Origin: Pseudovirgaria hyperparasitica
Taxonomy: Eukaryota
Strand: one strand, 5' to 3'
Assembly: GCA_010093815.1 (NCBI GenBank)
Contig: ML996587.1
Length of the DNA stretch: 64,000 nt
The notes beneath the pieces were generated by a model, which was given only the letters and a program-made list of their open reading frames with translations, ran no database searches and was not told the DNA's origin. The translations under genes and the position numbers were made by a program. This document shows positions 5,761 through 61,665 of the stretch, one piece after another; the first letter of the stretch is position 1, and every line of letters starts with the position of its first letter.

Positions 5761-7754
5761 AGAGAATCTAGATAAAAGGAATTTATAGTCTTAAGTACTA
5801 AGAGACGTTTCTTATATAGTATTAAAATTCTAGCTTAGATTAGAAACTAAAATGTTCTAACCTAAGATAGATAGAATTCTAAATTATTATTAATAATATA
5901 TATATATTCCTTCTTTTATAGTTACCCTTTAGAAGTATAAGCGTCTATTAAAGTATTATATCTAATATTAGATATATTATAAATCTAAAAAATATACTAT
6001 ACTAAAACCGTATCTATATATAAGACTATTTCTATAATTATATTCCCTAAATATTTATAATACTAGTAAGTAAGATAATATAATAGTCTAAGAAGAACGG
6101 AATCTATAAAGAAAGGCGTAGTAATATTATTTATTACTATATATCTATAAGCTTAAACGAATTCTTAATATATAGTAGTACGAATTCTATAAGAACGGTA
6201 GAGTATTCTTATAGTACTATATCTATATAGATTAATACTCGGATTAGAGAACGCCTTTCTTACTATATAATATCTTAATTAATTATTAAGTATATAATAT
6301 AGACTACTATCTAGTATCTATTAAGAGGAATATATTACTATATATAATACTAATAACGGAGGTAATACTATTTAGTAGTTATAAATAATTATTACTATAC
6401 TTACTACTATTAGTTCTCTTAATAAGATAATTCTAGTACTAGTAAATATAATCCTAGTAAAGAGAAGAGTTTACTCTACTATTAAAGAAAGGTAGTAATA
6501 GTAATATTACGCTCGCGAATACTCTTACTACTAAGCTTAGTTTATCTTCTACTTACTTATCCTTAACTTAACGTATAACTTATCTCTCTATTCTCTATCT
6601 TAATCTTATAGTCTTATAGAGACTCTAGCTTAATAAGTTTTATCTATAATCTTAAATAACTATTAATTCCTTCTTACTCTTATATCTATAGTAAATAAAG
6701 ATAGTATAGAGTAAAGATAATAAAGCTAAAGTTACCTTAGATAATAAAAACGCCTTAACTCTACTAAAACTAGTTACTAAGAGAGGTTATAAATAAAAGC
6801 TAAAAGGAAATAAAGGTAATAGAGGTTATTTAGTAAGTAAAATTAATAAAGAAAAGATTATAAAGAGTAAGAAGTTATGAATTAAGAAGTCTACCGCCTT
6901 AAAATATAATATAGTTTCTATTATAACTTAAGTAGTATATAGAAAGTACCCTTATATAAAAGAAGTAATAAGTAGTATTATTAGAACTATATAATTAGAA
7001 ACCTTTCTATTCTATAAAGTATATATTAGAATTAATATAGAATAAAAAGAAAGCTTTAATAGTAGATATAATAAACGAAAACTAGTCTATAATTATTCTA
7101 CCTTAGAAATTATAGTTAAAGGCCTCTGATTTATAATACTAACTTATAGTATCTACCTTTCTAATAAGTATAAACTCGAGATTTATATAGTATTAGTATT
7201 CTATAGAAAACTTAATAATATCTTTTACTAGAAGAATATTATAAATAGATTTATAGTATTATTTTAAGTATTAAAGACTTAGTCTTTAAAGAAAGTATTA
7301 CCTTTTATAATAAAGAAAGGTAACAATTTCTATATTCTACTATAAAAGTTAGACCCTCTCTATAAAGATAGATACTTATACTATAATAATAAAGGAAAGT
7401 TAGTTATAGTTAATAGAAAGTTCTACTATCTTATTATTAGTTAGTATATACTCTATAAGAAGTAACTAATTCTTACTAATACTAATATTAAGAATTCTAT
7501 CTAGTAGAACCCTTCTCTTCTAAAGTATAGGGTTTATTATTTAAATATAGAGGTATTATAAATAGTATTATATAAGCTTTATTAGATTAACCTTCTATAT
7601 AGAGAAGATAAGAGAGTTATATAAAATCTAAAAGGGCTAACTATACTATCTAATATTACTATACTATATTATATTATAATTAAGAAGAAAAATAAGCTTA
7701 AGATCTTAAGGAAGGGTAAATAAAAGGCGTATAATAAGTATAGTATAAGGTATA

Positions 7755-10700
7755 ATAATAATAATAATATTATATAACTAGATAGAGTAGTCTACTCTAT
7801 AGATATATATCTTCTCTAGTCTAAGCTATTATATAAGAAGAAACCTCTATAAGAGAAAAAACTCCCTTCTCTCTATAACTATATCTTATTAAGTCTTTAT
7901 ATTATCTTAAGTATATAGCTATAAAAAATATCTATAGACCTATAATCTATAGTATTATTATTTTATTCTTAGATAGTATATATAGAGTATAAGGGTTATT
8001 AGTTAAGGGTTAATCTTAACTAATAATTAGAGTTCTTCTAGGGTTCTTCTAGCGTATACTAGAGTCTATCTAGTATATATCTAGTTTCTTCTAATATATA
8101 TATCTAGGTCTATTAGTATTAAGGGAGTAGAAGATATATAAGTATCTATCTAGTAATCTTCTTAGAGTACTTATTAAGCTAGTATATAATATTAGAGGTT
8201 CTTATTATATAGATAAGTAATTATCTTTATATATAGAGGTCTAGATATATTATAAGATAATATTATATTATATCTCTCTAGCTATATATTTTATACTATA
8301 GAGATATATCTAGAATACCCCTCTAGTATAGATAATATAGAAGTTCTATAGCTTCCGTTTAGACTTAGAGAAGGATAGATATCTAGACTTTTATAAGCTC
8401 TTTATATATCTATTTACTTAGTGTCTTCTATAGTTCTTAAATCTACTCTAGATATCTTTTCTATTAGAATATCTAATAGATTTAGAGAGCTTCTCTCTAT
8501 TTATTCTAGATCTATAACTATATAGTCTATATAAGCTTCTAAGGGTTCTACTAGTCTAGAGAGATATCTAGATTATCTTTAGTCTCTTATATAATCTAAC
8601 TTAGGTCTATCTCTATTAGATACTTATACTATATATAAGTCTAGTCTATATATAGAAGTACTTAATAGTAGATACTAACTTATATATATAGTATAGTAAA
8701 AGTATATTCTATATATTCTATATATTTTTATACTTATTATTTAGTAAAGTATATTACCCTCTACATCTAATAGAAGTTCTATGTACTTATTATATTTATC
8801 TTATATTATAATAATACTATATTAGTACCTTTATATATACTAGATATAAGATAGAGTATATAGTTCTATATAGACTTAAGTTTTATTTATCTAGCTTATA
8901 TAAGGGCTATATACTAGTACTTATATCTATATATAAAGACGGGTCTTACTATAGAGATATATAGCTAGTACGCCTTATTCTAGGTAGTTCTCTATATAGA
9001 GACTATAATCTAGTATATAGTAGCTTCTACTCTAAGAGCTCTAGATATAGTATATATAACTTATAGTCTCTATTTAAGCTTATTATTAATTATAATACCT
9101 AGTATATATATACTCTATATTAGTAGCTTAGTAAAAGTATCTATTCTAGAATATTACTCTCCCTTCTTAGTAGTCTATCTTCTATAGTAGTTAATAAAGT
9201 ATATAAGTTAGTATTTCTTAGAGGCAAACTTTACTCTATGGCGCTTTATCTACTAGATATATCTCTTATAGTCTTATTTAAGGCGTTTATATATTAAACT
9301 AGTATTATTATTAATAGCTAGAAGATATATATTATTAGCGTATTCTACTACCTCTATATATTATATTCTCTATAGAAGGTCTATAGTAAAGAAGAGAAAG
9401 AGGATTAGGGAGATAGTACTTCCTTATAGAATACTATATATTATCTTCTTATATTTACTTTAATATCTAGGGATATATATCTAGGTAATTCTTTTAGTAA
9501 GAAAGAACTATATAAACTTTATAATCTATTTAGATATATATCTCTTCTATAGATTATTAATAAGTCTTATATAGTTTATCTTATTAAATACGCTAGCTAT
9601 ATTAAGAGAGAGTAGTATTACTATATATCTCTACTTATATATAGTCTAGATAACTTTAAGAATATATTAAATAGTAGTAATTAGAGAGCTTCTAGTCTTT
9701 ACCTTCTAGTTTACTAGAAGAAGATTATATTTCTATACTATAATACTTATCTTCTTTATAATTATAGTCTTAAGTATCTTACTAAGATAGAAGAGAAGAG
9801 TAATTAGTCTCTATTCTTTTAGAGAGTTAGAATTCTTCTCTACCTTTAGAAGTATAATAGTATAGATAGTCTAGAAACTTTAGAGATAGTATCTATTCTT
9901 AGTATATATCTAGAAGATAAGACTAATAAGTAGTAGGGTTATCTATATAGTATATTTAAGGCATCTATTTAGTATTCTATCTAGTCTAGATACTTTATTA
10001 TTTAGAAGTACTTTAATAGTATTAAGTATATCCCCTTCTATAATCTCTATAGAGATATTAACTATATCTAGATATATAGTATTATTAATATTAGATAGAT
10101 CTACTAGCTCTAGAGAGAGAAATATAACTTTATAGAGAATCTCTATCTTTTCTAGACTTATAGTATATGTTCTTTTCTAGTATATTAGAGGAGGTATTAG
10201 TAGTAGTAGCGTTAGCGCGTCCGCGCTCTTAGTCTACTTTACTATATACTATAGCTCTATAGCTTATTATATATATTTATTAGTAATTATATACTAGTAT
10301 TTATATTATTTATTATAGAGGGTTCTATTATAAGATTAGACTATCTCTTTCTATTTCTTCTATACCTTAGCTATCTAGATATAGTATATATATATATGGT
10401 CTCTAGGCTTCCCGTCTACTTTTATATATTTAAGGTATATCTCTTATATCTAGAGACTTATATATTTAGTATAGTATATATTTATCTCTTAAGTCTTAGA
10501 AGGCTTAAAGAAGAACTTATATAGCTCTATCTATAGCTAGACTATTAGATATATCGACTATAGAAGAATCTAGAATTACTAATCCTAGGTCCTCTCTATA
10601 TTTCTTCTAGTTAGTATCTTTTTAGAGCTATCTTCTCTATTATTTATTAGATATAGCTATATCTATTATAGTCTCTATATAATTATAGTTAGAGTTTATC

Positions 10701-12334
10701 TATATCTTACTTAGGCGGTAGTATTATACTCTATAGCTTATATATTCTATAGTAAGAGTAAGGTTAAGTATAGATCCCTTCTTATTCTATTTATATTTTC
10801 TCTATATAATTTATCTAACTAGTATAAGAAGATATAGAAGGTTATAGTACCTTATATATAGTTCCCTTACTCTAAGCTCTTCTCTAGTAACTATTAGATC
10901 TCTCTACTATCTATAGTAGAGATTAAAGTTACCTAGAAGGATATATTATTCTAGTACTATAATACTCTCTAGTATAGTATCTAGTATAAGTAATTCTCTC
11001 TAGTTATAGATATTATAGATATAGAGGGGTCCTATATTTATCTAGAGATATAGTATTATTTAGAGATTATTCTATTCTATATAGAACTACTTAGAGAGTA
11101 GGATTAATTTATATATATAGAATAGAACTCTTCTATCTAGACTTAGAGAATAGATAGTATATTACTCTAGGTATATTATTAGTTTATTAGTTTAGTAGTA
11201 TTTATATAGCTTCTAGATAGCTATTATTATAGTATCTATCTCTTTAAGAAGTATAGCCTAGTTTTCCTATTTATATTATATATTTATCTATATAATAATA
11301 AGTATATCTTAGCCCCTTATTAGATACTAGAGAATATTTAGATCTATATACTAGTAGTATTAAGGCGTAACTATCCCCGTACTATAGCTACTTTAAGAAT
11401 ACCCTAGAGTTAATCTATCTTTCTCTATATAGTATATTATTATATATTATTATCCCCCCCTTATAGATTAGTAGATATAATTATAGATAAGGTTAGAGTA
11501 GATAGTAGAGACTTTATAGTCTAGTATATCTACCTTACTTCTCTTACCTTTATAGTATTAATATACTTAGTAACTTATTTATATTTTATATATATTACTA
11601 ACTAGGATAGATATTTTCTATTATAGTTAGAGTATTTAGTAGTATCTCTATTATATATACTATTACTCTAGGTTCTATAGAGGTATTTCTAGATACTATA
11701 GCTCTAATAATACTAGTTATATATAGCCTTTTAAGAGTATCTCTATCTAGTATATCTATACTCCTAATAGTTAAAGTATTAGATTATTATCTATATCTAA
11801 TTCTATAGTTCTACTATAAGTAGTTTCTCTTTAGCTAAGAAGTCTTCTTATATAATTCTATAGATAAAAGTAGAGTCTCTAAGCTCTACTATTATAGTAG
11901 AGTATTTTTTTAATTTTATCTTAATTTCCTATATAATTTTCTACTATACCCTTATAATTTTCATTCTAGGGTATTTCTAGTTATTAGATCTCTCTATTTA
12001 CTTAATATTATTATTTCTAATAATATAGTTCTAGATAGAGATAGTATATACCTATATTAGATATATATTTATATAGATAGATATACTAGAGAAGATATTA
12101 TTTATTATATTTAGGTTATAGAAGATAGTCTAGTAGACTATATTAGTAGTAGTTATAAGGACTATATCTTCTAGGGTAAGTTTAGCTATAACTATATTTA
12201 ACTATATTTCTTTCTATTTATTAATTTTATTAATAATATTCTTTAGAGATATCTACTAGACTTATATAAGTACTTTCTTATTCTAGATAGTATTTTATAT
12301 ACTATATACTTCTTTCTTAGATATTCTTAGTATT
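7755..12334 (-). mobile_element. Old LINE (subfamily C), 3' part: (AAT)n tail, ORF2 and most of ORF1
   Basis: Collinear with the LINEs at 24032-29354 and 35601-40892 but more heavily mutated. Left TSD tatagtataaggtata at 7739-7754. Interrupted at 12335 by a Gypsy LTR. Confidence 0.85.
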
Positions 12335-12545
12335 TATAATAAACCTTCTCTAGTAAGGATGTAGCTTATCCCTAAAGTAGTCCGTTATATAGAGTATTCT
12401 AGCTTTTCTAAAGGTAAAGGTACTTAGAAGGCTTAGAAGAGTATAAGTAGGTTTATAGTAAGTATTAATAGAGTATAAATAGTAACTAGCTAGTAGGCGA
12501 GTAAAGTAGTAATTATATTAGTATAAGTTTAAACTAATTACTATA

Positions 12546-13486
12546 ATAATAATAATAATATTAGTGTTTAACTAGGAAGAACTATATATATAGCCATATA
12601 TATGCTCCACAGGCTCAGGCCTCCTCTAGTATTGGCTGCTATATATATAAGAAAACCTCCTATGATTAGCTCCCTAACTAGACCCTATTACTAACCTAAC
12701 CTAGCCTAGTCTAAGTCCTCGAATCCCATTAGGTAACAAACTTACTTCTTATCCTTATATTAGGCTTTTATTACTATATTAGTACCGGCTCTTAATAACG
12801 CCCTAACTAACTATAGTACGTATTACCTTTCTTATGATTAGATAGGTCGCTAGGCTAGGCCTAGTCTTTTATTCCTATGTTACCGTGTTTTTTCCTATCC
12901 ATAGGAATATAGCTTTACGCCGGGCAGTAGTTATTAATTAAGATAACTAATACCGGAGGGGGTATATATCTAATAGGTCCATGCCTTAGCACTAACCCTA
13001 GCTAGGCCGAATTCGGAAATTATTCTTTGGGGCTATGTAATCGTCTATAGATAGGCGGGATACTTAATTAGATATTACCGTCTATTTCGTGGTTACCGAG
13101 CCGGAGTAAGCGCGAGCTAAGCCGGATTAGAGTAGATAAGGCCCTAGTATATAGTGAAAATTCTATGATTCGAGCTAAGCTAGTTATAGGTCTAGCCGCT
13201 CTAGGCGTTACTCTACCACTTAAGGTAGCTTAGTAGGTGGCTATATTAGGTAATTTTCATTATGTAATAACGGTATAGTCATTTTCACATTACCTAATGG
13301 TCGCTTAGGACTAAGTAGTTATATAACGGTAACCTTCACGTCACGTGCTCGCTTAGCCCCGTATACTTTTTAATAGAGCGTGTAAAAACTAGTATGTAAA
13401 AAGGTGGCCGTTGTAGGATTCGAACCTACGACGTTAGATAACAAACGCTTCTAGTAACGTAGTATACTACTACTACGCCACCTAGC
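12546..13486 (-). mobile_element. tRNA-derived SINE (~940 bp) with LINE-like 3' end and (TAT)n tail
   Basis: 16-bp TSD taaa(c/t)taattactata at 12530-12545 and 13487-13502; the empty site is present in the sister LTR at ~29918-29933. tRNA-like head at 13405-13486; tail at 12546-12560. Confidence 0.85.
13405..13486 (-). pseudogene. tRNA-like head of the SINE (Pol III A and B boxes)
   Basis: Minus strand reads GCTAGG TGGCGTAGTAG...GTAGG TTCGAAT CCTAC AACGGCCA: A-box-like TGGCGTAGTAG, perfect T-arm with B box GGTTCGAATCC. Acceptor stem imperfect; isotype not assignable. Confidence 0.8.
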
Positions 13487-14081
13487 TAAATTAATTACTA
13501 TAGAACTATCTCTAGAGGTTAGGTTTAAAGAGTCTATATAGTTCTACTAAGGTCCTTTAATTAGAATACTCATTCTAAGTATCTAGTATATTACTTAGAA
13601 TATTAGTATTCTATTTCTAATTACTTAGTAGACTACTTAGAATATCTATTCTAAGTATCTATAATTAGCTCTCCCTATAGATATCTATCTTAGCCTTAAG
13701 TCGTTTTCTAAGGCTACCTATAGTATTATAAGTACCCCTTCTATATATTATACTATCTCTTATACTACTTATACTAGAGTCTATATATTCATCTATAGTT
13801 ATAGCTAGTAGTTTATTATATAATACCCCTTCTAAGGTACTTTATCCCGAAGTACTTCTATTACTACTTATAAGTAGATAGTTATTCTAACTTCCTCTAG
13901 TAAGGAGCTCCTTTTTCTTTTCTTTTATTATATCTAGAGTTATAAAATTAGTTAAGTCTTCTAAGTATAATCCGGTAAAACGGAGAGTTACTTTATCTAT
14001 CTTAATTAATTATAAGGGCAATAAAATACCTTTCCCTTACTTATTTTATAAGAAATATAGTTTAACTTATAGAGCGGTATT

Positions 14082-17000
14082 AGAAACTTCTCACACCCTA
14101 ACGGACTAAACTAGTTAATTCGGGGTAAAACAGCGATTTACATACATTAAATAATAGAGTATACCGAGTATAACAACCTCCGACACACGTGCGTACGTAT
14201 AGTATATAATACGCAACGATACCGACGTATAGAGATACTATATATATACGCTTAAAGACTCTTCGATAACACGAGCATAGACTATATCTAATAAACGCCG
14301 ACACGCCGACCCCCTTTTATTAGTTAAGGGCTACCCTTAACTAATAACCATGGCGGCCTTAGGCATTATAATACCCCGGTATACGCCGGATATACCCCTA
14401 CTAGTACGGTAGAAACGGCCATATAGCGATATTAATATAGATAGCTAGACACCTATCTAAAATATAGGAACTAACTAAGGGTGCGAAGTACTATAGATAA
14501 CCTAGACCGAGGGGACCCTAAGAGGGGAGACCCTCCTAGATAAAATTAAATACTAGGTAACACGTATAGAGAGGGACGCCGAGAAGGGAAAGAAGACCCT
14601 CCTTTATATATTCCGGGACCTTATCCGGAACCTAAGAGGAATTATAGAGGAAGAAAGGAAGTCGCCACGAGAGAAACCTAGTAGTAGACTTAACCGAATG
14701 GAAGCCAGCCTACGGAGAATCTAGGAAGAGCTATTCTAAGGTAAGCGCCCTAACACGTGGGCTTAGATTATAGTAATACCCGGAGCTACCGCACTAAGGA
14801 CTACTAGGACTATAGATAGAGTATATAGTATATGTATTATAATCTAGGATAAGAATAAGCTAGTATAGGTCTAACGGGCATCCCTAAAGGAAATTATAAA
14901 TAAGATTAACGAATAGAAAGGAATATAGTCAAGCGTCGTAGCTACTAAAGTTACGCTAGGTAGGGTAGTACTTACTACTATAACGAATACTACGTAGTAA
15001 AACATCTCGCGAGATCCGAACGCGATAGATAGTATCTTCCCTAGCGCGTCTATTAGGGTAGCTATATACCCGATTATAGTATATATAGTACCTATATAGG
15101 GATAGGCTATCGGAGCGGAGGATATTACGCGTATAGAATAATCTAACACGCGAAAATACCTAGGGATTAAGATTGTGAAAGCGTGGTAGAAGAACCTATA
15201 GGCGATTAAGACGACGGCGAAAAAACACTCTACTATAATTATAGAGCTCCGAGACCCCGCCCTCGTATAATATATTATATAGAAGGGATTCCTAATAGAA
15301 GGAGAGCTCCTTATAGCCGAGCTATAGAATAGAGTATAGGTAATAATATAGTGCTTTAACTATTAAGGGTATAGATATACTATATAAAGGTACTTATAGA
15401 AGACTAAGTGCGGATAGTGCCGTAGGGACCACGCTATCTAGGAGTGCCCTTATAAACCGCGAGGAGATGGACTAAGAAATAGGGATATAGTATAGTATTT
15501 AAACTACGACGGGAAATACCCGTCGTAGTCGTTAACGTGCATAAAACGTAAATAGGTTATAGAATATATTCGCACGATAAAAGCGAGAGGCGCGAGATAG
15601 TTATAGAATATAACACCTACCACGAGCCCTTCCTTTATAATACCCCTAACCTCCCCCCCGGAAGGTAGTTAGGCGGGATAGTAGACTATCCCGAAGACGA
15701 TAGGACGACTAAAAGGTATAGTTAAAGCCGCTGCCGCGCGAGGATAGTCGCGCCTCTAAGGAATAAATATATAGATATATATACTCTCTAGTACCTAATA
15801 AGGGACTAGAATATACTCTAAATTATATAGGTAAATATATAATATAAAAGAGAGAACTAGGTAACGCTCCTCGAAGAGACCGGGGCTATAATACTTACTA
15901 TCTAGGAACCCTATAAATACTACTAGACGAGTAAACTAACCATACACTCCGGATACCATACTATACACCCTCTAGGACTAGAAAGACGAGTCCTCTTCTA
16001 TATTTATAGGTTAATACTACTCTTATTATAGTTATATACCGAGCGCGATAACCTTAGGATAATACTACACCTATAAATAGATATAGGCCCCCTATATATA
16101 TATAATATATATAACTAATAACGTATACTTATACTAGACGAGATACTCGAGGGTACTACGGAACTAGGGTAACACATCCTCCTAGAAGACTTTAACCTCT
16201 ACCACCGATAGTAGGGAGGCCTAGCCATAGTTAGGGAAGAACTTAGAGTAAGGGAACTACGTACCCGCTACCACGACTTCCTATACCTACTTACACCTAT
16301 AGAATAAGTTATATAGAAAAAACATAAATAGAACGAAGACGGGTCTACGCTTAACCTTACCTTCGCCATAGAGTATATTAGTTACCAGATCTAATACTAC
16401 CGCCTAGGCTAGGTATAGATAGATTCCGACTATAAATATATAGAAACTATAATAAACGTATATACCCCGAATAAATAACGGGGACGATAGATATAGAAGG
16501 ATACTAACTAGGAAAAGTACCTAAAGGACCTAGAATCGGCGATCCTAGATCCCTCTATAGTCGATATATCTAACGACCTAGCCATAGACTAGGCCGTATA
16601 GATACTCCTATAAATATACTAGAATGCGAGAAATAAACACGTACTATACCGAATATACCGGCCCCCAGGAGTAAAGGGGATTCCTTAAGTACGGGAAAGT
16701 AGATAAGACGCCCAAAGGCTATATAGACGCGTATACTATACGAGAATACCCGGGTCGTAGGAAGAATAGAAGAAAGTAATATAATAACGCGATAAAGTCC
16801 TCCGTAATAAAAGGCGTAAATAGTAGTATATAATTACTAGTTAATAGACACGANNNNNNNNNNNNNNNNNNNNNNNNNNNNNNNNNNNNNNNNNNNNNNN
16901 NNNNNNNNNNNNNNNNNNNNNNNNNNNNNNNNNNNNNNNNNNNNNNNNNNNNNNNNNNNNNNNNNNNNNNNNNNNNNNNNNNNNNNNNNNNNNNNNNNNN

Positions 17001-19148
17001 NNNNNNNNNNNNNNNNNNNNNNNNNNNNNNNNNNNNNNNNNNNNNNNNNNNNNNNNNNNNNNNNNNNNNNNNNNNNNNNNNNNNNNNNNNNNNNNNNNNN
17101 NNNNNNNNNNNNNNNNNNNNNNNNNNNNNNNNNNNNNNNNNNNNNNNNNNNNNNNNNNNNNNNNNNNNNNNNNNNNNNNNNNNNNNNNNNNNNNNNNNNN
17201 NNNNNNNNNNNNNNNNNNNNNNNNNNNNNNNNNNNNNNNNNNNNNNNNNNNNNNNNNNNNNNNNNNNNNNNNNNNNNNNNNNNNNNNNNNNNNNNNNNNN
17301 NNNNNNNNNNNNNNNNNNNNNNNNNNNNNNNNNNNNNNNNNNNNNNNNNNNNNNNNNNNNNNNAGACGAATACTAGAATAGATTATACGCTTTATATAGT
17401 TATTCCTCATAGGAAGAATAACTTAGATATATATCCCTAGGTACTAGAGCGAATATAAAGAGACGGTATACGGCATCCTATAAGGGAGCACCATCTCTCC
17501 GATTCTATTCCTCTTCTTTATAGTAGACCTTCTTTAAGGAATAAAGTATATAGAGATAGTTAGATACGCTAATAATATATACCTTCTAGCTATTGATAAT
17601 AATACCAAACGAACGTATAGATAACTAGAATAGAACCACGAGAGGTACCTCTAGTAGGTAAAACGCTATGGAGTAAAGTTCGCCCTAGAGAAATACTAGC
17701 TCATGTACTTTATTAATCGTTAAGGGAAATAGATAACTAGGAAAGGTAAATAACGCCCCCGAATCGACGTATTTAACGAACTACTAGTATAAAGTATACA
17801 CGCGCTTAGAGTTATACTAGATAGTAAGCTTAAATGGGGACCATAAGTAGTATACGCCGTCTCTAGGGCCCTCTAGGTAGAAGCCGCTATATAATAGATT
17901 ATAGCCTCCACGTAGGGAACCGCCCGGGATAAGGCACGCTAGCTATATATATCTATAGTACGACCCGCCTTTATGTACGGACACGAGTACTAGTATACGG
18001 CCCTTATATAGACTAGGCGAATAAAGCTCGAATCCATATAGAACCGTATACTCCGTCTTATATTAGGCGTATATAAAGCTACTAACACGGTGCTACTACG
18101 ACGCGAGATAGACGTCATAAGTATATATAACTTCTACTAGACATAGAGGGTGGTATACTTTACTAAATAATAAGTATAGGAATATATAGGAAACGTAGAA
18201 TATACTTTCGCCGCACTACGTGTACGAATTAGTATATATTACCACGCACTCCTATATATAGGCCGGAATCGAATACGGTATAGGTGCTTAATAGAAGCCA
18301 ACTCTAGCTAAGTAGTATAAGAAGTCCGAGATAACCCGGACGCTCTCCTAGACTAGTAGAGCCTTTAAGAACTTATAAAAAACATACGGTCGTAGACTTA
18401 AGATAAGTAGAAAGAGGCACTCCGTGCCTACTAGACCTCCTAGTAGAATAGGTATCTAGAGTAGATTCGAGAGCTATAGAAGGAACTAAGTAAATAGATA
18501 TATAAAGGGCTAACGAAAGCCTAAGTATCTATACTCATCTAAGCCCGAACGGGCGCTATAGAACTCCTATACTATATCTATAAGAGAGGCGTTCCTAATA
18601 CCTCTCTATAGTATAAGGCGTATAGCCGGAGAGGTATAATATGCTACTATCTAGCTATATACCCTAACCTCTATATATAACGGTAATGGCTTATCTACGT
18701 TACGAAGACTTTAGATATCGTATAATAGCTTAATAAGTACTCTAAGGATGTCTCCCGATAGATGCTTATATATCTACTACTCCTCTAGTACTAGTGGACC
18801 TAGAAATATATACCGGAAGAGACCTAGTATACGCTAGTAGTAATCTAATATATACCGGAAGAACCCCGGGAGAACCCCGATTATTAGTTAAGGGTAGCCC
18901 TTAACTAATAACCTCCGCACCTATACGTACTACCTAAGGGTAAAATAACGGTAATATAGGCTATAGGCTAATAGGCGTACCCTATAGCTATATACTTAAG
19001 ACGAAATAGAGGTTTAACGAGATATAGTTATAGATATAAGGAAGTTTTTCCCTATGGGGTTTCTTCTTATATAGTAGCTTAGACTAGAGGAGGCATAGGC
19101 CTGTAGAGTACTACTCTACCTAGTTATATAATATTATTATTATTATTA
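14082..19148 (+). mobile_element. Full-length Tad1-like LINE, subfamily A copy 1 (RIP-inactivated; internal N gap)
   Basis: 15-bp TSD ttatagagcggtatt at 14067-14081 and 19149-19163. ORF1 from ATG 14350 with three CCHC knuckles ~15350-15540. ORF2 APE motifs (IQEP ~15900, GDFNLHH ~16185, SDH ~16425), RT YADD ~17565, C-terminal Cys/His motif ~18610. (TAT)n tail. Confidence 0.92.
16854..17363. other. Assembly gap (510 N) inside LINE ORF2
   Basis: Run of N. Confidence 1.
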
Positions 19149-22100
19149 TTATAGAGCGGTATTTATAAAGTCTAATAAGTATTTAGAGTATATTTATCAG
19201 GGTTATTTAGTAAGTAAGTATAGAATTAAAGCTTTAAGTAAGTTATCTTATAAGTCTTCTTTCTTTTTATTAGGGTAGATTAGTAATATTTCTAGATAAG
19301 AAGATCTATTCTAAGAAGGCTCGCCTTAAGCTAGAGAAAGAATATATAGCTACTATCTAGTAAAAAGCTTAGTAGAACGCTTAGACTACTTTTATATATC
19401 TAGAGCGTTTAGAGAAATAGTAGAAGTTATTAGAGTATTATTAAAATAATATACTTTATTAGAATCTATTAGTAATAGACCTTAAGAAGAAGAAGAAGTA
19501 ACTTAAATAATAATAGAGAGTTATCGCCGAGGAGGTTCTAAATTCTTCCTTAGATTTTAATAATTCTTAGCTTAGTATAGAGAACTAGGCGAATCTAGGT
19601 TTATTTAATAGAACTTCTATAATAGTTACTAGTAGTTTATTAAATATTCCCTAGATTTCTAAGTATTTAATTCGTATCTATAGCCCTTCTACTTAATTAG
19701 ATACTCTAGTATTCTATTACTAATTCTAGATTCTAGAATCTTTTTAACTTTAAATTCTTTATCTATAGTTTTAATATTAGTTTTAACTTTTATATTATAT
19801 AGTACTAGTTCTAGTAATAAGATATAAAATACTAGGTATATCCTTATATTCTAAGATAAAGATAGTTTATAATTAACTTCTAAAATTTTTTATTTTATTC
19901 TAAAAGGTCTAATCTTCTTAAAGTCTAGTTTACTATTTAGTTATTATATCTTAACGTTTTTTTATATAAGGAATACTAGGTCTTCCCCCTTTAGAGATAG
20001 TCTCTTTATTCTTTTCTAATTTATATATTTTACTATTCTTTTATTTATAAAGGAAAGTTTAGTTTATCGTTCTAAGTATAGCTTATATAGTTATTCTACC
20101 TTAATCTTTACTTTTAGTATAGATTCTTCTAGTTTATAATTATAGCTAGCTATAGAGTTAAATCTATAGTTTATATAGAATAGTAAAGTTTTAGTTATTA
20201 AGGTTATTATACTATTATAGACGAATTAAGCTAGTAGTAGTAGTTCTATCTAATTATTTTATTATTTATTAATATAGTATTATAAGTATTATTCTAGTAT
20301 TCTATTTAGAATCTCTATTTATCTATCTATCTATAGATAATAGACTATTAATAGTTAGTAACTTATTCTAAGCTATTATACTAGGCTTTTCTAAAAGTTT
20401 AATATAAAGAGCTTATCTCTATTAGATATAATACTATTAGATAATCTATAGTTTACTATAACTACTTATAGAAATATATAGACTATTTCTTCTATATCTA
20501 TATTCTTTTAATATAATATAAAGTAGATATACTTTATAAGTTTATTAACTACTACTAGTATAATATTATACTATACTTATAAAACTAGTTCTCTTAAGAG
20601 TAGTAGATCTATTATAAAATCTATAGAGATTATTTTCTAAGTATATAATAGTAGGGGAATTAGTTAGAATTCTCTATATAGTTTATATCTATTAGATTAG
20701 CTTTTACTATATAGAATATAGTTCTATATAACTTCTTTAATAACTTATCTTTTCTTATAGATTATATAGTATCTCTTAAATTATTTATAAGTTTTTATTT
20801 CTTCTTAGTATCTATATATTAGACCTTTATAGAATTCTTTAATAAAGTAATAGATCTTATCTCTAGGAATTATACTTCTTCCCTTAGAGTCTTTAAGTAT
20901 AAATTCTTTTTATATTACTATAATATATTATATTAGTCTAAGGTTTCTATCTTTAGTAACTTCTAATATAGTCTATTCTATAGTAGGTTCTTTTTACTTA
21001 TATTCCGCTTATTAGCTAAGGGCGTTAGCTCTTCTACTTTTAGATTTCTTATAGTATATAATCTAAATATTAAATTCTATAAGAAGCTTATATTAACTAA
21101 TTTACTTCTTTTATAGTTCCTTTATTATAGTAAAGGTTATAAGATTCTTATAGTTAGTATATATTTTTATTATATAGTCTAATCTATAAAGATAGCTTCT
21201 CTATTCCTTAAGGTATTTAATAATAGTATAGAGTTCTTTTTTATAGATTAGCTAGTTTATTTCTAATCCTTAGAATTTTTAGAAGTAAAATACTATAGAA
21301 GATCTTTTCTCTTATTTATCTATCTAGGTTAACTACCCTTTAATAGTAAATTCTAATATATCTATCTCTAAGTTTCTCTATTTAATATATCTTTAATACT
21401 AGTTTAGTTATAATAGATTCTTTTAACTACTAAAATACTTATTTCTATCTTAGTTTCTATTTAAATATTATATTCTTCTTTATAAGCTTATATAGTAGGG
21501 CTATTTTTATAGAATAGTTATATATAAATTTCCTATAAAAGTTCATAAATCTAGTAAATCCTTAGATTTCCTTAACTATCTTAGATTACTTCTAATTTTT
21601 AATAACCTTAATTTTCTTTAGATCTATTTATATTTCTCTAGATATAATCTTAAATTCTAGAAATATAACTTTCTATATATAGAAGATACTCTTCTTTAAT
21701 TCTACTAGTAGATTTACTATTTATAGTTTCTAAAGTATCTTATATATATATTCTCTATACTCTAATAGATTCTTTAAATAAATTAATATATTATCTAGGT
21801 AGACTATTATAAAGTAGTTAAGGTATTTTCTTAATATATTATTAATTAGTATCTAAAATATAGCTAGTATATTAGTTAGTCTAAATAGTATTACTAGATA
21901 TTTATAGTAGCTATAATAAGTCTAAAAGGCTATTTTCTATTTATCTTCTTCTACTATATATATAAGATTATAGACTTCTTATAAATCTATTATAGTAAAG
22001 TACTAAGCTTCTATAAGTTAGTTCTATAACTTATTAATTTAGGGTAAAGAATATTAGTTTTTAATAGTAATATTATTTAGATATTAATAGTCTATATAGA

Positions 22101-22994
22101 GTTATTTACTTCTATCTTTCTTTAGTATAAAGAGTATTAGATATTCTATAGGTAATTTAGATAGTTAGATATATTCTTTTACTTCTATTTTCTTAATATA
22201 TTATCGTATTATTTCTAGTTATTTTTTAGTAAGTTAATATATACTTTTAAATATAGATAATATTCCTAGTTAGAGTATTATTATATAGTTATATAGACTA
22301 TACTTTAGTAGTCTTATCTTAAGTTCTTCTTTAAAGATAATATAATATTAGTAATAGTCCTTTAGTATAAGTATGTTATTTATTTTTTAAATCTATTTAT
22401 CTATAGACGTACTTTATTATACTATATATTTCTTATATAAGGGTCTACTCTTAATATTATCTTACTTATTATTAAGCTTCTAAATATAGTAGATAGACTT
22501 TCTAGTTATTAGCGCCTTTATAGATTTATTAATCTCTAATTCTTCTTTAATAGTTTCTAAGGGTCTTAACGTTTCCTAGGGTATAATTTCCTTAGTTTTC
22601 TAGTTAATTATAGAGTTAACTTCTTTAAGCTATAGTATTTCTAGAATTAAGTTATATTATTCTAGCTCTACTATATCTAATTATAGTTATTAGTATTCTA
22701 TTATTAAGACTAAATCTAAAGGTTCTATTTCTAAGTATACTATTCTATTAATATATTCTATATTAAGTCCTTTAATTATAGATAGCTTATATAGTTCTTC
22801 TTTACTATTATAGAGTATTTTTAGTTTATCTACTATAGTTAGAGAGATAAAGTTAGACTATACTCTACTATTAATTAATACTTTAATAGAGTATTTTTAA
22901 TAGAGCTAAATTTTAAGAGATATCTATATTTCGTTATCTAAGCTACTAATAGATATAAGAGATTTTCTTTTTAGCTTAGCTATTTCTCTTAGTA

Positions 22995-23699
22995 NNNNNN
23001 NNNNNNNNNNNNNNNNNNNNNNNNNNNNNNNNNNNNNNNNNNNNNNNNNNNNNNNNNNNNNNNNNNNNNNNNNNNNNNNNNNNNNNNNNNNNNNNNNNNN
23101 NNNNNNNNNNNNNNNNNNNNNNNNNNNNNNNNNNNNNNNNNNNNNNNNNNNNNNNNNNNNNNNNNNNNNNNNNNNNNNNNNNNNNNNNNNNNNNNNNNNN
23201 NNNNNNNNNNNNNNNNNNNNNNNNNNNNNNNNNNNNNNNNNNNNNNNNNNNNNNNNNNNNNNNNNNNNNNNNNNNNNNNNNNNNNNNNNNNNNNNNNNNN
23301 NNNNNNNNNNNNNNNNNNNNNNNNNNNNNNNNNNNNNNNNNNNNNNNNNNNNNNNNNNNNNNNNNNNNNNNNNNNNNNNNNNNNNNNNNNNNNNNNNNNN
23401 NNNNNNNNNNNNNNNNNNNNNNNNNNNNNNNNNNNNNNNNNNNNNNNNNNNNNNNNNNNNNNNNNNNNNNNNNNNNNNNNNNNNNNNNNNNNNNNNNNNN
23501 NNNNNNNNNNNNNNNNNNNNNNNNNNNNNNNNNNNNNNNNNNNNNNNNNNNNNNNNNNNNNNNNNNNNNNNNNNNNNNNNNNNNNNNNNNNNNNNNNNNN
23601 NNNNNNNNNNNNNNNNNNNNNNNNNNNNNNNNNNNNNNNNNNNNNNNNNNNNNNNNNNNNNNNNNNNNNNNNNNNNNNNNNNNNNNNNNNNNNNNNNNN
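22995..23699. other. Assembly gap (705 N) inside the Gypsy gag/pol region
   Basis: Run of N. Confidence 1.
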
Positions 23700-24031
23700 G
23701 GTTAGTAGAATAGTCTCTCTCTCTAGAGATTTTATCCTTAATATTATTATAGAGTTCTATATAGAACTAGAGAATTAGAGGTTTATTATTCTAGCCTAAC
23801 TAACTTAAGACTTATTAGAATTTAAAGGTATAGTTAGATATAGATTTTATCTAGACTATTTACTAGATCTATCTCTTAGCTATTCTTTATTTATCTATAT
23901 CTCTAAAGGTTATCTTAATATATTTCTTAAATTCTTTAAAATATTTAAAGATCTTAGTAGTATTATTCTATTAATTCTATAGATTATTTTCTATAAAGTC
24001 CCTTAAGTAGAGTTTAAACTAAATAAGTATA

Positions 24032-27000
24032 ATAATAATAATAATAATAATATTAGTAAACTAGGTAGAGTACCACTCTATAGGCGCATGCCTCCTCTAG
24101 TCTAAGCTACTATATAAGAAGAAACCTACGAATAGGAAAAACTCCCTTATATCCATGACTACGCTCTGTCTATCCTCTCGTTCTTTTATATATATAGCCC
24201 TAGGGGCTACCCATGGGCCTATAGCCTATGTTATAATGGTTTACCCTTAGGCAGCACGTGTAGGTGCGGAGATTATTAGTTAAGGGCTACCCTTAACTAA
24301 TAATCGCGGTTCTCCCGGGGTTCTTCCGACGTATACTAGGGTTCTTCTAGTATATATCGGGCTTCTTCCGGTATATATACGTAGGTCTACTAGAACTAGG
24401 GGAGAGGAAGGTGTGTAAGTATCTATCGGGCGACGTCCTTAGAGTACTTATTAAGCTATCGCGTAATGTTAGAGGTCCTTATTATACGGACGAGGGCTTA
24501 TCTTAGGGTATAGAGGCTAGAGCACGTCGCGAGGTAGTGGCGTATTATATCTCTCCGGCCGTAGTCCTCGTACTAGAGAGATACATCTAGGACGCCTCTC
24601 TAGTAGAGGTAATATAGAAGATCTATAGCGCCTATTTAGGCTTAGAGGAGTATAGATACTTAGGCCTTCGTTAGCCCTTTATACATCTATTTACTTAGTT
24701 CCTTCTAAGGCCCTTAGATCTATTCTAGATACCTATTCTATTAGGAGGCCCACTAGGCTTTAAGTACCTCCCTCTATTTATCCTAGATCTACGACCGTAT
24801 AACGCGGCTAAGCTCCTTAGGGCTCTATTAGCTTAGGACGGCGTCCGGGTTATTTTAAACCTTCTACACGGTCTAGCTCGAGTCCGCCTCTATATAGTAT
24901 TTATATTATACTCGAGTTCGTCCTATAGTAGGGAGGGCCTAGTAATACGCGTGGATACGTGTACGTAGTACGGCGAAGGTATATACCCTATCTCCTCCAC
25001 GTTCTTATACTTATTATTTAGTAAAGTATATAAGTCTCTATATCTAGTAGAAGTCCTATATACTTATTACGTTTATCTCGCGTCGGAGAAGCATTATATT
25101 AGTAGCTTTATATACGCCGGAGATAAGGCGGAGTATATAGTTTTATATAGACTTAAGCTTTACCCGCTAAGCTTATATAAGGGCCGTATACTAGTACTTA
25201 TATCCGTATATAAAGGCTAGGCGTGCTAGAGAGACGTATAGCTATCTCGCCTTATCCCGGGCTATTCCCTACGTAGATACCGTAATCCAGCATATAGCGG
25301 TTTCTACCTAGAGGGCTCTAGAGATAGCGTGTGCCACCTATGGTCCCTATTTTAGCTTATTATTAATTATAACGCCGAGTGCTCGTATACTCTATACTAG
25401 TAGTTCTATAAAGGCGTCGATTTAGGGGCGACGTACCCTCTCCCTAGTAGCCCATCCTCTATAGCGGTTAATAAAGTGTATAAGCTAGTATTTTTCAGGT
25501 ACAAATTTTACTCCGTGGCGCTTTATCTACTATACATATTTCTCGTGGTCTCGTTCGAGTCGTGTATATATTCTACTAGTACTACTATTAACCGTAAGGA
25601 GGTATATATCGTCCACGTATCCGACTATCTCTATATATTCTATTCTCTAAAGGAGGTCTACTATAAAGAAGAGAAAGAGAATCGGGGAGATAGTACTCCC
25701 TTACGGGATGCCGTATACCGTCTCCTTATATTCGCTTCGGTATCCGGGGATATATATTTAAGTAGTCCTTTACGCGAGGAAGGACTATATAAATTATATA
25801 ATCTACTTAGGTATTCGCCTTATCCGGAGGTTATAGATAAGTCTTATATAGTTTACCTTATTAAACGCCCCTACTATATCTAGGGAGAGTAGCGTGACGA
25901 CTCGTTCTTATTTCTATATAGTCTAGATAACCTTAAGGATGTGTTAAATAGCTATAATTAGGGAGCTTCCTATCTTCGCCTTCTAGTTTACTAGGAGAAG
26001 GTCGTGTACCTATACTACTATACTTATCTTCTTAGTAATCATGGCTTCTAGTACCTTGCTAAGGTAGGAGAGGAGGGTAATCGGCCTCTATCCCTTCGGC
26101 GTGTTTAGGCTCTTCTCTAGTTTTAGGAGTATAACCGTGTATATAGTTTAGAAGCTCTATAGGTGGTATCCTATACGGGCGTACGCTCGGAATATATAGC
26201 CTATAATTAGTAAGGTCGCCTATATGGTCCTCTTAAGGCATCGATTTAGAATTCTATCTAGCCCGGGCGCTTTATCGTTCGGGAGTGTCTTAATAGCGCT
26301 AAGTATATTATCGTCCGTGATTTCCCTAGGGATACTTACGGCTTCCGGGTATTCCGTGCCGTTAATATCTAATAGGTCTACGGGTTCTAGAAGAGGGAAC
26401 ATAACCTCTCGTAGAATCTCTATTTTCTTAAGGCTCGTGGAGTATATCTTTTCTTAATATATAAGGGGGGGTATAAGTAGTGTAGGTGTCGGGGAGGCGG
26501 TACTTTTGGCCTATTTTACTATATACTATAGTCTAGTAGTATTATGTGTATATCTATCCGTGACTATACGCTACTATTTATATTACTCGTTACGGAGGAC
26601 CTTATCTCGTTATCTTCTCGTCTCTCTCTATTTATCCTACGCTTTAGGTATATAGTTATAGTATACGCGTGTGTATAATCTCTAGACTTCTCGCCTATAC
26701 TCTTATACTTAAGGTATGCTTTTCGGGTCTAGGGGTCTATATATTCGGTACGGCACGTATTTATCTCTTACTCCCTAGTACGCCTATAGGAGTATGTTCA
26801 CGGCCTAGTCGATGGCCGGGCCATTAGATACGTCGACTATAGACGGGTCTAGAATCGTCGATTCTAGGTCCTTTAGATACTTTTACTAGTTAGTATCCTT
26901 CCATAGCTATCGCCCTCGTTAGTCTTAAGAGGTGGATACGTCTATTATAGTCTCTATATATTCGTGGTTAGAGTCTATCTATATAAGGCTTAGGCGGTAG

Positions 27001-29354
27001 TATTAAGTTCTATTATAAATATGTCTAGTGGCTAGGGTAAGGTCGAGTATAGATCCGCCCTTATCTTATTTATATTTTCGCTAGATAATCTATTCTACTA
27101 GTATAAGAAGGTATAGGAAGCCGTGGTATTAGGTGCGTAGTTCTCTAGCTCGAAGCTCTTCGCGGGTGACGGTTAGTCTACCCCACTAGCTATAATAGAG
27201 GTTAAAGTCTCCTAGGAGGATATATTATCCTAGCTCGGTAGTACCCTTAAGTATATTATCCGCCTAAAGCGATCGGTTCTAATTATATATATTATATATG
27301 TGGAGGGGTCCGATATTCGTCTAGAGGTATAGTATTATCTAGAGGTTATCCCGTTTAGTATACGACCATAATAAGAGTAGAATAGACTTATAAACATAGA
27401 AGAGGACTCTCCTCTCCGGTCCTAGGGGGTATATTATATAATATTCTAGGTGTGTTATTAGTTTATTCGTCTGGTAGTATTTATATAGCTCCTATATAGC
27501 GAGTATTATAGCTCCGGTCTCCTCGAGGAGTATCGCCTAGTTCTTATATTTATACTATACATTTATCTATATAATTAGGAGTGTATCTTAGTCTCTTATT
27601 AGGTGCTAGAGAATATATATGCCTATATATTTATTCCTCTAAGACGCGACTATCCTCGTACGGCGGCGGCCTTAGTAATTCCTTAGGGCCGTTCTATTAT
27701 TAGCTTTCTCGGGACGGTTTACTATTCCTAACCGCTTTCTCGTAAGGAGGTAGTCTATAGTAGTAGTATTATAGTAAAGAGAGGAACGGTAGTAGGTCGC
27801 ATCGTTTATAGCTACCTTACTCCCTTTATCCGGATTAAGTAGATATATTTAGTAACCTATTTACGTTTCGCGTACGTAGTCGACCACGACGGGTACTTAC
27901 CGTCGTAGTTAGAGTACTTCGCCGTATCCCTATCCCTCTAGCCCTCTCCTCGTGTTCTATAGGGGTACTCCTAGGTACTATATTCTTATTAATACTACCT
28001 ATACCTAGTCTTTTAGGAGTACCGCTATGCCGTGTACCCGTATCTCTAATAGTTAAAGCACTATATTATCGCCTATACTCTATCCTATAGTTCCGCTATA
28101 AGAAGCTCCCCTTCCGCTAGGAATCCCTCTTACGTAATTTAATACGCGAGGGCGGGGTCCTTAAGCTCTACTATTATAGTAGAGTATGCCTTCGATCTAG
28201 TTTTAATCCCTTATATATTCTTCTACCATACTCTTACGATCTTAATTCCTAGGTATTTTCGCTTATTTAACTATTCCATCCGCGTAATATCCTCTTCTCC
28301 GATAACCTATCCGCTTATAGATATAGAGTATACCTATATTAGGTATATAGCCGCCCTAATAGAGGCGCCTAGAAAGATACTACTAATCGCGTTCGGATCG
28401 CGCGAGATAGTCTACTACGCGATATTCGTTATCGTGGTAAGTACTACTCCTTCTAGCGTGAGTTTAGCGGCGATAACGTTTAACTATATTCCCTTTTATT
28501 TATTAATCTTACTTACTATATCCTTTAGGGATACTTACTAGACCTATACTAGGGTGTCCTTATTCTAGATTATAACGTGTATACTATACGCCGCGTCGCC
28601 GGTCTAGGGGGCCCGTAGTATAGCCTCCGGTATTACTACTATTTATACCTATATACTAGGGCGCTTACCTTAAGTAAGTTCCTCCTAGATTCTACGTAGG
28701 CTAGCCTCTATTCGGTCGAGCCTACCCTCCGGTCCTCCTAGTTATATCTTCTTCTCCTCCTCTATAATTCCCTTTAGGTTCCGGATAAGGTTCTAGAATA
28801 TATATAGAAGGGTCTTCTAGCCCTCTCCGGCTTCCTTCTCTATACGTGCTACCTAGTAGTTAATGCGATCTAGGAGGGTTTCCCCTCTCGGGGTCCTCTT
28901 TATTCTATCTATCTATAGCGGCGTGCGCCTTTAGGTGTGTTCTACGTTTTAGATAGGTGTATAGTTACCCTTAGTAATATCGCTATATAGCCTTTTCTAT
29001 TATACCGGTGGGGGTATATCCGGTATATACCGGGGTATATCGGTGCCTAAGGCCGCTATATTTATTAGTTAAGGGCTACCCTTAACTAATAAAAGGGGGT
29101 CGGCGTATCGGCGTTCTAGTAGCGTGGTCTGTGTCTCTATCTCCGTGAGGATTTTAAGAGGGTATATATATATCTTTACACGGCGATAACGTCTTAGTTT
29201 CGACGCTATACGTACGTGCGTGTAGTAGTAGTTAGTATACTCGGTATACTCTATCGATTAAGGTATATATCTTGCTATATTACCCCGAATGGACCAAGTT
29301 GGCCTCTTGGGGATGTAAAAGAAGTTTAAATATTAATAATAAAGTAAACTTCTC
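24032..29354 (-). mobile_element. Full-length Tad1-like LINE, subfamily B (RIP-inactivated)
   Basis: 15-bp TSD aactaaataagtata at 24017-24031 and 29355-29369. Residual RT fragment LPNDKAPGLDRILNR (ORF track 26220-26402). (AAT)n tail at the left end; canonical 5' terminus at ~29327. Confidence 0.92.
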
Positions 29355-29722: not shown

Positions 29723-30251
29723 TATAATAAACCTTCTCTAGTAAGGATATAGCTTATCTCTAAAGTAGTCTATTATATAAAGTATTCTAGTTTTTCTAAA
29801 GATAAAGATACTTAGAAGGCTTAGAAGAGTATAAGTAGATTTATAGTAAGTATTAATAGAGTATAAATAGTAACTAGCTAGTAGGCGAGTAAAGTAGTAA
29901 TTATATTAGTATAAGTTTAAATTAATTACTATAGAACTATCTCTAGAGATTAGGTTTAAAGGGTCTATATAGTTCTACTAAGGTCCTTTAATTAGAATAC
30001 TTATTCTAAGTATCTAGTATATTATTTAGAATATTAGTATTCTATTTCTAATTACTTAGTAGACTACTTAGAATATCTATTCTAAGTACCTATAATTAGC
30101 TCTTCCTATAGATGCCTATCTTAGCCTTAGATTATTATCTAAGGCTACCTATAGTATTATAAGTACTCCTTCTAGATATTATACTATCTCTTACGCTACT
30201 CGTGCTAGAGTCTACGTATCCTTCTATAGTTATAGCTAGTAATTTATTCTA
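29723..30251 (-). repeat. 5' LTR of the Gypsy element (529 bp)
   Basis: Direct repeat of 12335-13820 without the SINE; followed by TSD GTATT. Confidence 0.9.
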
Positions 30252-35572: not shown

Positions 35573-35600
35573 CTAGAGACTTAGTATATTAATATTTATA

Positions 35601-43427: not shown

Positions 43428-43674
43428 CGAGAAANNNNNNNNNNNNNNNNNNNNNNNNNNNNNNNNNNNNNNNNNNNNNNNNNNNNNNNNNNNNNNNNNN
43501 NNNNNNNNNNNNNNNNNNNNNNNNNNNNNNNNNNNNNNNNNNNNNNNNNNNNNNNNNNNNNNNNNNNNNNNNNNNNNNNNNNNNNNNNNNNNNNNNNNNN
43601 NNNNNNNNNNNNNNNNNNNNNNNNNNNNNNNNNNNNNNNNNNNNNNNNNNNNNNNNNNNNNNNNNNNNNNNNNN

Positions 43675-61530: not shown

Positions 61531-61665
61531 NNNNNNNNNNNNNNNNNNNNNNNNNNNNNNNNNNNNNNNNNNNNNNNNNNNNNNNNNNNNNNNNNNNNNN
61601 NNNNNNNNNNNNNNNNNNNNNNNNNNNNNNNNNNNNNNNNNNNNNNNNNNNNNNNNNNNNNNNNN
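61531..61665. other. Assembly gap (135 N)
   Basis: Run of N; agttggttatattta occurs on both sides. Confidence 1.

Follow-up and report, generated by a model that had tools for sequence, protein, structure and literature searches.

The 64,000-nt stretch of Pseudovirgaria hyperparasitica DNA analyzed here (the window) contains an element of ~930 nt that is very probably a non-coding, tRNA-type SINE with a LINE-derived tail. As in SINE2 elements, the family to which it belongs is interspersed, multi-copy and non-coding, with variable target-site duplications (TSDs), a simple-repeat tail, 5' truncation and internal A and B boxes and, as in SINE-LINE pairs, its 3' end is homologous to that of a resident LINE. 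The host, a member of the Dothideomycetes (Acrospermales), is described as a mycoparasite of rust fungi.

The insertion runs on the minus strand from 13487 to 12546 and interrupts a Gypsy-type 3' LTR (12335-13820, minus strand). It is flanked on the same strand by TSDs at 13487-13502 on the 5' side of the element and at 12530-12545 on the tail side, which are identical at 15 of 16 positions and differ by a single C/T mismatch. Because the first bases are GG in 19 of 28 SINE copies, base 13487 may be the first base of the element, and the TSD therefore measures 15-16 bp. The paired LTR of the same Gypsy-type element (29723-30251, minus strand) carries the empty insertion site at 29918-29933, and the presence of a filled and an empty site in two LTRs of one element indicates that the SINE inserted after the Gypsy-type element. 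The host element was assigned to this type by RT, RNase H, SH3 and chromo matches at 19160-22990 (minus strand). At another genomic locus, L003, its LTR and internal pieces are contiguous when inserted LINEs are skipped. The preliminary description of the window had reported a ~940-bp insertion in a Gypsy LTR with a 16-bp TSD, an empty site in the sister LTR and a (TAT)n tail, and our analysis recovered each of these features, the tail as (TAT)5 at 12546-12560 (minus strand). The window sequence is RIP-degraded and TA-rich, and it contains four N gaps (16854-17363, 22995-23699, 43435-43674 and 61531-61665), one of them within a long (AAT)n run; given these gaps, young repeat copies may have been collapsed in the assembly.

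Upstream of the tail lies a LINE-related 3' region (12561-12662, minus strand) with a core at 12571-12630. Copies of at least three related LINE families that have a 3' core in common, all candidate partners, were identified in the same window: a RIP-broken, 5.3-kb LINE B (24029-29327, minus strand), two LINE A copies (14080-19152, plus strand, with an N gap, and 35598-40889, minus strand) and a LINE C copy cut by the LTR (7752-12335, minus strand), with a 3' end of the same type. The preliminary description had singled out LINE B as the partner on the basis of five ordered blocks shared with its 3' end at 24032-24130. These blocks are visible there, and the similarity lies well above shuffle level: the last 120 nt of the SINE score 49 against LINE B, whereas dinucleotide shuffles average 18, with maxima of 39 for LINE B and 35 for LINE A, and none of 1000 reaches 49. 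The match to LINE B thus exceeds chance, but it is not specific, since LINE A also scores 49. Among 2062 window tiles, the best non-self matches are LINE ends, and the similarity persists against L141, an un-RIP'd LINE A copy (39-49, 0 of 1000 shuffles). LINE C, whose sequence is more mutated, gives a poorer match (31, 7 of 1000 shuffles), and for the family consensus 44 of 1000 shuffles reach the LINE C score. Exact identity is modest, at 33 of 42 nt for the window copy against LINE A and against LINE B. Three old copies of the SINE share 51 non-transition or indel columns that set them apart from the rest, and the family therefore comprises at least two subfamilies. In purine/pyrimidine class, the 42-nt core of the old subfamily agrees with LINE B and LINE C at 40 positions and with LINE A at 39, compared with 37-38 of 42 for the younger subfamily against the LINEs. 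That the old subfamily is nearer the LINE core than the younger one points to a tail taken from the A/B/C LINE group and drifted afterwards.

LINE B is present in at least 18 full copies in the genome, with clear TSDs of 14-18 bp in seven of the 18, none in another seven and doubtful ones in four; its sister copy L039 matches RT (E 1e-17) and, weakly, an endonuclease. For a 28-nt motif from the LINE ends, 152 matches occur in the genome (control, 0), and most of the 100 matches listed are of the A type. The un-RIP'd LINE A copy L141 (G000:C52) has an open ORF1 of 486 aa and an open ORF2 of 925 aa with endonuclease and RT (PF14529 and PF00078), the best named relatives being fungal proteins at 31-34%. 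The window copy at 35598-40889 differs from it by 953 C>T/G>A changes, five transversions and two reverse transitions. A second un-RIP'd copy, L142 (G000:C39), shares with L141 a deletion of ~277 nt near the ORF2 end, and L141 may therefore not be competent. LINE target sites begin like those of the SINE, as in the 15-bp TSD of L141, which starts with TATA, and two SINE copies (L008 and L021) are inserted inside LINE A copies. No RNase H match was found in LINE A or LINE B. Two ORFs, as in L141, an APE endonuclease plus RT and a fungal host are as in the Tad clade, to which the partner LINEs putatively belong.

Because the tail matches LINE A too, and LINE A has an un-mutated recent copy, the sequence comparisons identify the partner as the A/B/C LINE group and not provably as LINE B. 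With an equal score, greater numbers among the matches listed and an un-RIP'd copy, LINE A appears at least equal to LINE B as a candidate for the working partner, and is our best guess for recent activity. A lesser possibility, which we hold to be rather unlikely, is that the actual partner is another LINE, either extinct or missing from the assembly, bearing the tail variant of the SINE, with A, B and C being mere relatives. The younger SINE subfamily has indeed drifted from every sampled LINE core, the SINE loop is 18 nt longer than in any sampled LINE, and a portion of an open LINE ORF2 from a different family (L143, contig C105) is present without its 3' end in the assembly. A genome-wide scan for a 19-nt motif with up to two mismatches, however, returned 72 hits (control, 2). 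Besides SINE copies, these were LINE B ends (44), a single LINE A end and one site that looks unrelated, and no nearer LINE family emerged. This alternative bears on the identity of the partner only and is compatible with the interpretation of the element as a SINE.

Additional observations were made on the LINEs. The same 31-bp near-perfect palindrome occurs twice per LINE, ~240 nt from each end, with ten matches in the window (at 24272-24302, 29061-29091 and in other LINE copies) and further instances in L039 and L151; the SINE yielded no match to it. The LINE families appear to swap parts: in L185-L186 (G000:C8:1591194-1596470) the first 0.8 kb are B-like (92%) and the rest A-like (89%), and L151 (C40) is ~72% like A and B overall, yet carries an A-type 3' end. 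At L145:391-575 and L146:1050-1227, a LINE A 5' end lies head to head with the last 47-58 nt of a tailed SINE. A search at both loci for the other LINE end, as in a two-tailed LINE-SINE chimera, did not find it, and the junctions fit insertion of a LINE into the TA-rich hairpin of an older SINE.

The LINE ends are predicted to fold into an outer stem (ACTAG/CTAGT) around two hairpins, and the core of the SINE 3' region could form the same three stems. In 13 hand-picked, related SINE and LINE sequences, with base pairs counted on an anchored alignment because MAFFT misplaces the loop gap, 181 of the 182 pairs are conserved. Transversions occupy none of 28 stem columns and four of 11 unpaired columns (p 0.004), for a structure picked post hoc and under a RIP regime that itself favors transitions. 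The additional 18 nt of the SINE, present in none of the sampled LINEs, fall within a loop and are self-complementary. Folding z-scores of the 3' end range from -1.7 to +0.6 and are not significant, and the lowest-energy fold of the SINE pairs these bases otherwise. On this model, the SINE and LINE tails can adopt one three-stem fold with their differences in loops, and we regard the predicted common fold as a lead. The eel SINE paired with UnaL2 is known as UnaSINE1. In stringent-type pairs such as this one, 3' sequence and a stem-loop are described as a shared recognition signal (PMC3747384); those pairs were tested by retrotransposition assay, whereas the structure proposed here is predicted and has three stems rather than one. 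A more speculative extension, to which we give limited credence, is that this LINE group might know its RNA by a 3' three-way junction and not by sequence, and that the SINE might use the fold to ride several LINE families. RIP-mutated SINE copies could then remain usable sources, since G-C pairs hit by C-to-T or G-to-A changes become G-U or A-U pairs and the SINE has no reading frame to break.

The 5' end of the element is an 83-nt tRNA-like head (13405-13487, minus strand) with a D-arm-like hairpin, a T arm and a short acceptor-like stem, and without a canonical cloverleaf. The A box (13470-13480, minus strand) reads TGGCGTAGTAG in the window copy, with one G>A change, and TGGCGTAGTGG in 14 of the 23 full-length copies (L001-L023). 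The B box, GGTTCGAATCC, lies inside a 5-bp T stem (13416-13426, minus strand). In element coordinates the boxes occupy positions +8 to +18 and +62 to +72, which corresponds to tRNA spacing, and the T stem is followed by CC and by a T run directly behind the head (13398-13402, minus strand; T4 in the consensus and T5 in the window copy). The tRNA-like head with A box and T-arm/B box of the preliminary description is thus upheld, with a subthreshold score: the Rfam tRNA model gives 17.5 bits (E 1.7) on the window head and hits the head in all five copies scanned (17.5-19.9 bits), always below the cut-off of 29, the tRNA-Sec model appearing in one of the five. ARAGORN called no tRNA genes in the window, and at a relaxed threshold returned implausible folds only. 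The head folds better than shuffles in two of three copies (z -3.5, -3.3 and -1.7), not as a cloverleaf; for the window head, z is about -3.25 to -3.3 and none of 200 shuffles reaches it. The 49 genomic tRNA genes compared, an incomplete collection in which several isotypes are missing, offered no clear best parent. The 5' half of the head agrees at 24 of 27 nt with initiator tRNA-Met from metagenomes, in hits that were selected by a pattern of our own design and are hence not independent evidence, and the T loop is elongator-like. Two genome-wide head patterns found SINE heads, two ordinary tRNAs and one chance coding-region match, and an exact-pattern scan of metagenome contigs yielded 23 loci, 20 of them called tRNA genes and none matching the SINE body. 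Judged by its sequence, the head is tRNA-like but degenerate.

Behind the head, the non-coding body spans ~740 nt (12663-13404, minus strand). The family consensus has no stop-free run of more than 90 codons, no Pfam family scored above cut-off in the six frames of the SINE, and neither the genome search (32 matches) nor 188 retrieved loci contained body sequence outside the family. The body had been called unique at ~750 bp, which stands in the sense that it is restricted to family members and not in the sense of a single copy, given 37 genome matches. Rfam matches to rli62, Vault and SNORD45 in the SINE fall far under cut-off and were dismissed as chance. The SINE contains none of the window's 25 longest inverted repeats. 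The lack of T runs longer than four in the consensus, considered as a sign of Pol III transcription, was rejected as not significant, as 69% of shuffles are alike.

The features of the head bear on a second alternative, in which the element, a non-autonomous retroposon, relies on the same LINEs but owes its transcription to Pol II or to read-through from neighboring sequences, with the tRNA-like head as a passenger. The unusual length of the element, a head that scores under the Rfam cut-off and forms no cloverleaf, and the situation of L013, L014 and L025 among genes would agree with such an origin. Against it stand the placement of both boxes at tRNA positions, the common start of full-length copies at the +1 G and, with the non-independence noted above, the likeness of the 5' half of the head to initiator tRNA-Met, and we consider it improbable.

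Far from being single-copy, the element has 37 matches on 13 contigs, corresponding to ~35 loci, in a search of its own genome (35.4 Mb, 122 contigs) that sets a lower bound. Twenty-three matches are full-length, at 92-100% identity, two are cut at the 5' end only and miss the first ~90 nt, four show 77-81% identity and seven are fragments; the remaining one is a partial duplicate adjoining an N gap (L026) and is probably an assembly overlap. Nor do the other copies lack TSDs and tails. In a survey of 28 of the 30 retrieved loci, excluding L026 and the interrupted L030, 26 copies present their own TSD of 11-20 bp, lengths that are blurred where the TSD overlaps the tail; among 754 mismatched flank pairs used as a control, the same search gave a hit in 13. 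Nearly all TSDs start with TATA or TATT, and the two copies without a TSD are L003 and L028, the latter old and truncated. Full-length copies share a common start position and end in (TAT)n. Two copies (L024 and L025) are 5'-truncated, each with its own TSD. In both, which are young, the 5' junction falls within ~10 nt behind the tRNA-like head, a pattern (n = 2) that would fit either a reverse transcriptase that stalls at the head or an RNA from which the head has been removed.

This uniformity also bears on the reading of the family as chimeras formed repeatedly by template switching between a cellular non-coding RNA and LINE ends, like the MINE (WEIRD-MGL) elements of Magnaporthe, which we regard as largely refuted. 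MINE chimeras are described as having TSDs and a 1.1-kb non-coding 5' part, but their junctions are variable, with 28 sites in 33 elements (PMC2104539), whereas the SINE copies are colinear with one common 3' part (purine/pyrimidine identity 0.999, L001-L021), their LINE-like part is diverged and their body, among 32 genome matches, is absent outside the family. Chance likeness among RIP-degraded repeats, for which a TA-rich window inflates short matches, or a DNA-level duplication, is refuted by the dinucleotide-shuffle and tile scores, the persistence of the match against un-RIP'd L141, the independent TSDs and the absence from the element of the 25 longest inverted repeats in the window.

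The distribution of the SINE is uneven, with 26 of 35 loci on contigs C21 and higher, compared with 16 of 44 LINE B ends (Fisher p 0.0013, for a contig split picked after the data were seen). SINE-rich places are the G000 contigs C21, C23-C26, C30 and C33 and the C4:1.90-2.10 Mb region, the four C4 copies all lying inside 210 kb. Two of the SINE copies, L003 and L004 (G000:C4:1898462 and 2005108), are inverted and lie 106 kb apart. Their 3' flanks agree at 94-96% for 1.8 kb or more past the element, L003 is one of the two copies lacking a TSD, and the 5' flank of L003 belongs to the LTR family of the window, ~20 nt from the insertion site seen there, which suggests recombination or duplication through the SINE. 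An old copy (L147:3214-3807, G000:C26) is interrupted by ~590 bp with a long direct repeat on either side, which may be a small non-autonomous element of LTR type. Three copies reside in gene-rich, un-RIP'd DNA (L153:4780-5716, L154:4378-5311 and L155:4344-5193). A same-strand frame for an ABC-type ATPase lies ~730 nt upstream of L013, and the product of a gene beside this copy is 98% identical to a protein assigned to Pseudovirgaria hyperparasitica, the next-best matches reaching 53-55%. A single contig crosses the SINE into the L013 flank in each of the runs X3 and X4, the type of which is not recorded, and in X4 into the L014 flank as well; both runs hardly cover the LTR that encloses the window copy.

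Taken as a tRNA-type SINE, the element most likely borrows the enzymes of the resident LINEs. RNA polymerase III would transcribe it from the internal A and B boxes, and the last ~100 nt of the RNA, together with (TAT)n, would mimic the 3' end of LINEs A, B and C. Following established SINE-LINE biology, the endonuclease/RT of LINE ORF2 would nick a target starting with TAT(A) and, acting in trans, reverse-transcribe the SINE RNA from its tail by target priming. Insertion would leave the 11-20 bp duplications observed, and RIP would mutate the copies afterwards, as suggested by the signature seen in them. Differences among copies are nearly all transitions, 2119 of 2830 in CpA context, their direction depending on how the consensus is constructed. 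RIP-type mutations are present in all SINE copies, and no un-RIP'd copy occurs among those found in the genome; pooling 18 LINE B copies likewise did not recover an unmutated state. All 21 younger copies carry 12 RIP-type states for which at least two of the four others keep the ancestral base. A shared-mutation test for RIP-mutated sources gave mixed results (z 0.2 and 2.1), with LINE B tiles spanning the same range. RIP requires repeats of ~400 bp or more, and at 930 nt the SINE would be exposed to it by length.

Precedent exists for both the design and the length of this element. One review table lists two fungal SINE-LINE pairs, Mg-SINE/MGL and SINE2-1_BG/Tad1-24_BG (PMC3747384). The Magnaporthe pair, Mg-SINE/MGL (MGR583), likewise involves a tRNA-derived SINE with a 3' end resembling that of a resident LINE thought to be borrowed (PMC3747384, PMC2104539). 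Compared by description, Mg-SINE measures 472 bp and has ~100 copies (PMC5063351), versus ~930 bp and ~35 loci here. AfuSINE2-1a of Aspergillus fumigatus, paired with I-1_AF of the Tad clade, is also described with a tRNA-related head and A and B boxes, a 14-bp TSD, a 3' part like a Tad LINE 3' UTR and a trinucleotide tail (PMC5063351), and by eye its A-box region is much like that of the present SINE. It differs in its 370 bp, four copies and (ACT)n tail, as opposed to (TAT)n, and I-1_AF is reported to have an RNase H (PMC5063351), for which LINE A and LINE B gave no match. In Blumeria, SINE2-1_BG is likewise a fungal SINE paired with a Tad1 LINE (PMC3747384). The lengths given for the Blumeria SINEs Egh24 (884 bp) and Eg-R1 (657 bp) (PMC10648671) demonstrate that long fungal SINEs exist, and fungal SINEs of 700-900 bp are cited elsewhere (PMC5063351). 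Blumeria is described as being without RIP, whereas the present family is under heavy RIP, and the fungal classes differ. A search of article texts found no description of the family, which supplementary repeat libraries may hold, and gave no SINE-LINE pair for Dothideomycetes. Titles and abstract openings of the listed papers on the species name no SINE, and passages of 10.1101/2020.09.27.311811, PMC4522978, PMC6416283 and PMC12543289 contain nothing on this family. Judged by the published descriptions surveyed, it looks like a new family of a kind that is known but seldom described.

Well-supported fungal SINE-LINE pairs are few, and the present family leaves the accepted view of SINE function unchanged. 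It brings together some two dozen cleanly bounded full-length copies, an older subfamily nearer the LINE tail, diverged versions of that tail in three LINE families and a LINE copy with open frames, and therefore offers a natural series for mapping how a fungal LINE recognizes the 3' end of its RNA. The same series would serve to ask how a non-coding retroposon fares under RIP. If recognition by a common 3' fold and continued use of RIP-mutated sources both held, a 930-nt SINE could survive the RIP that is fatal to the LINEs it exploits.
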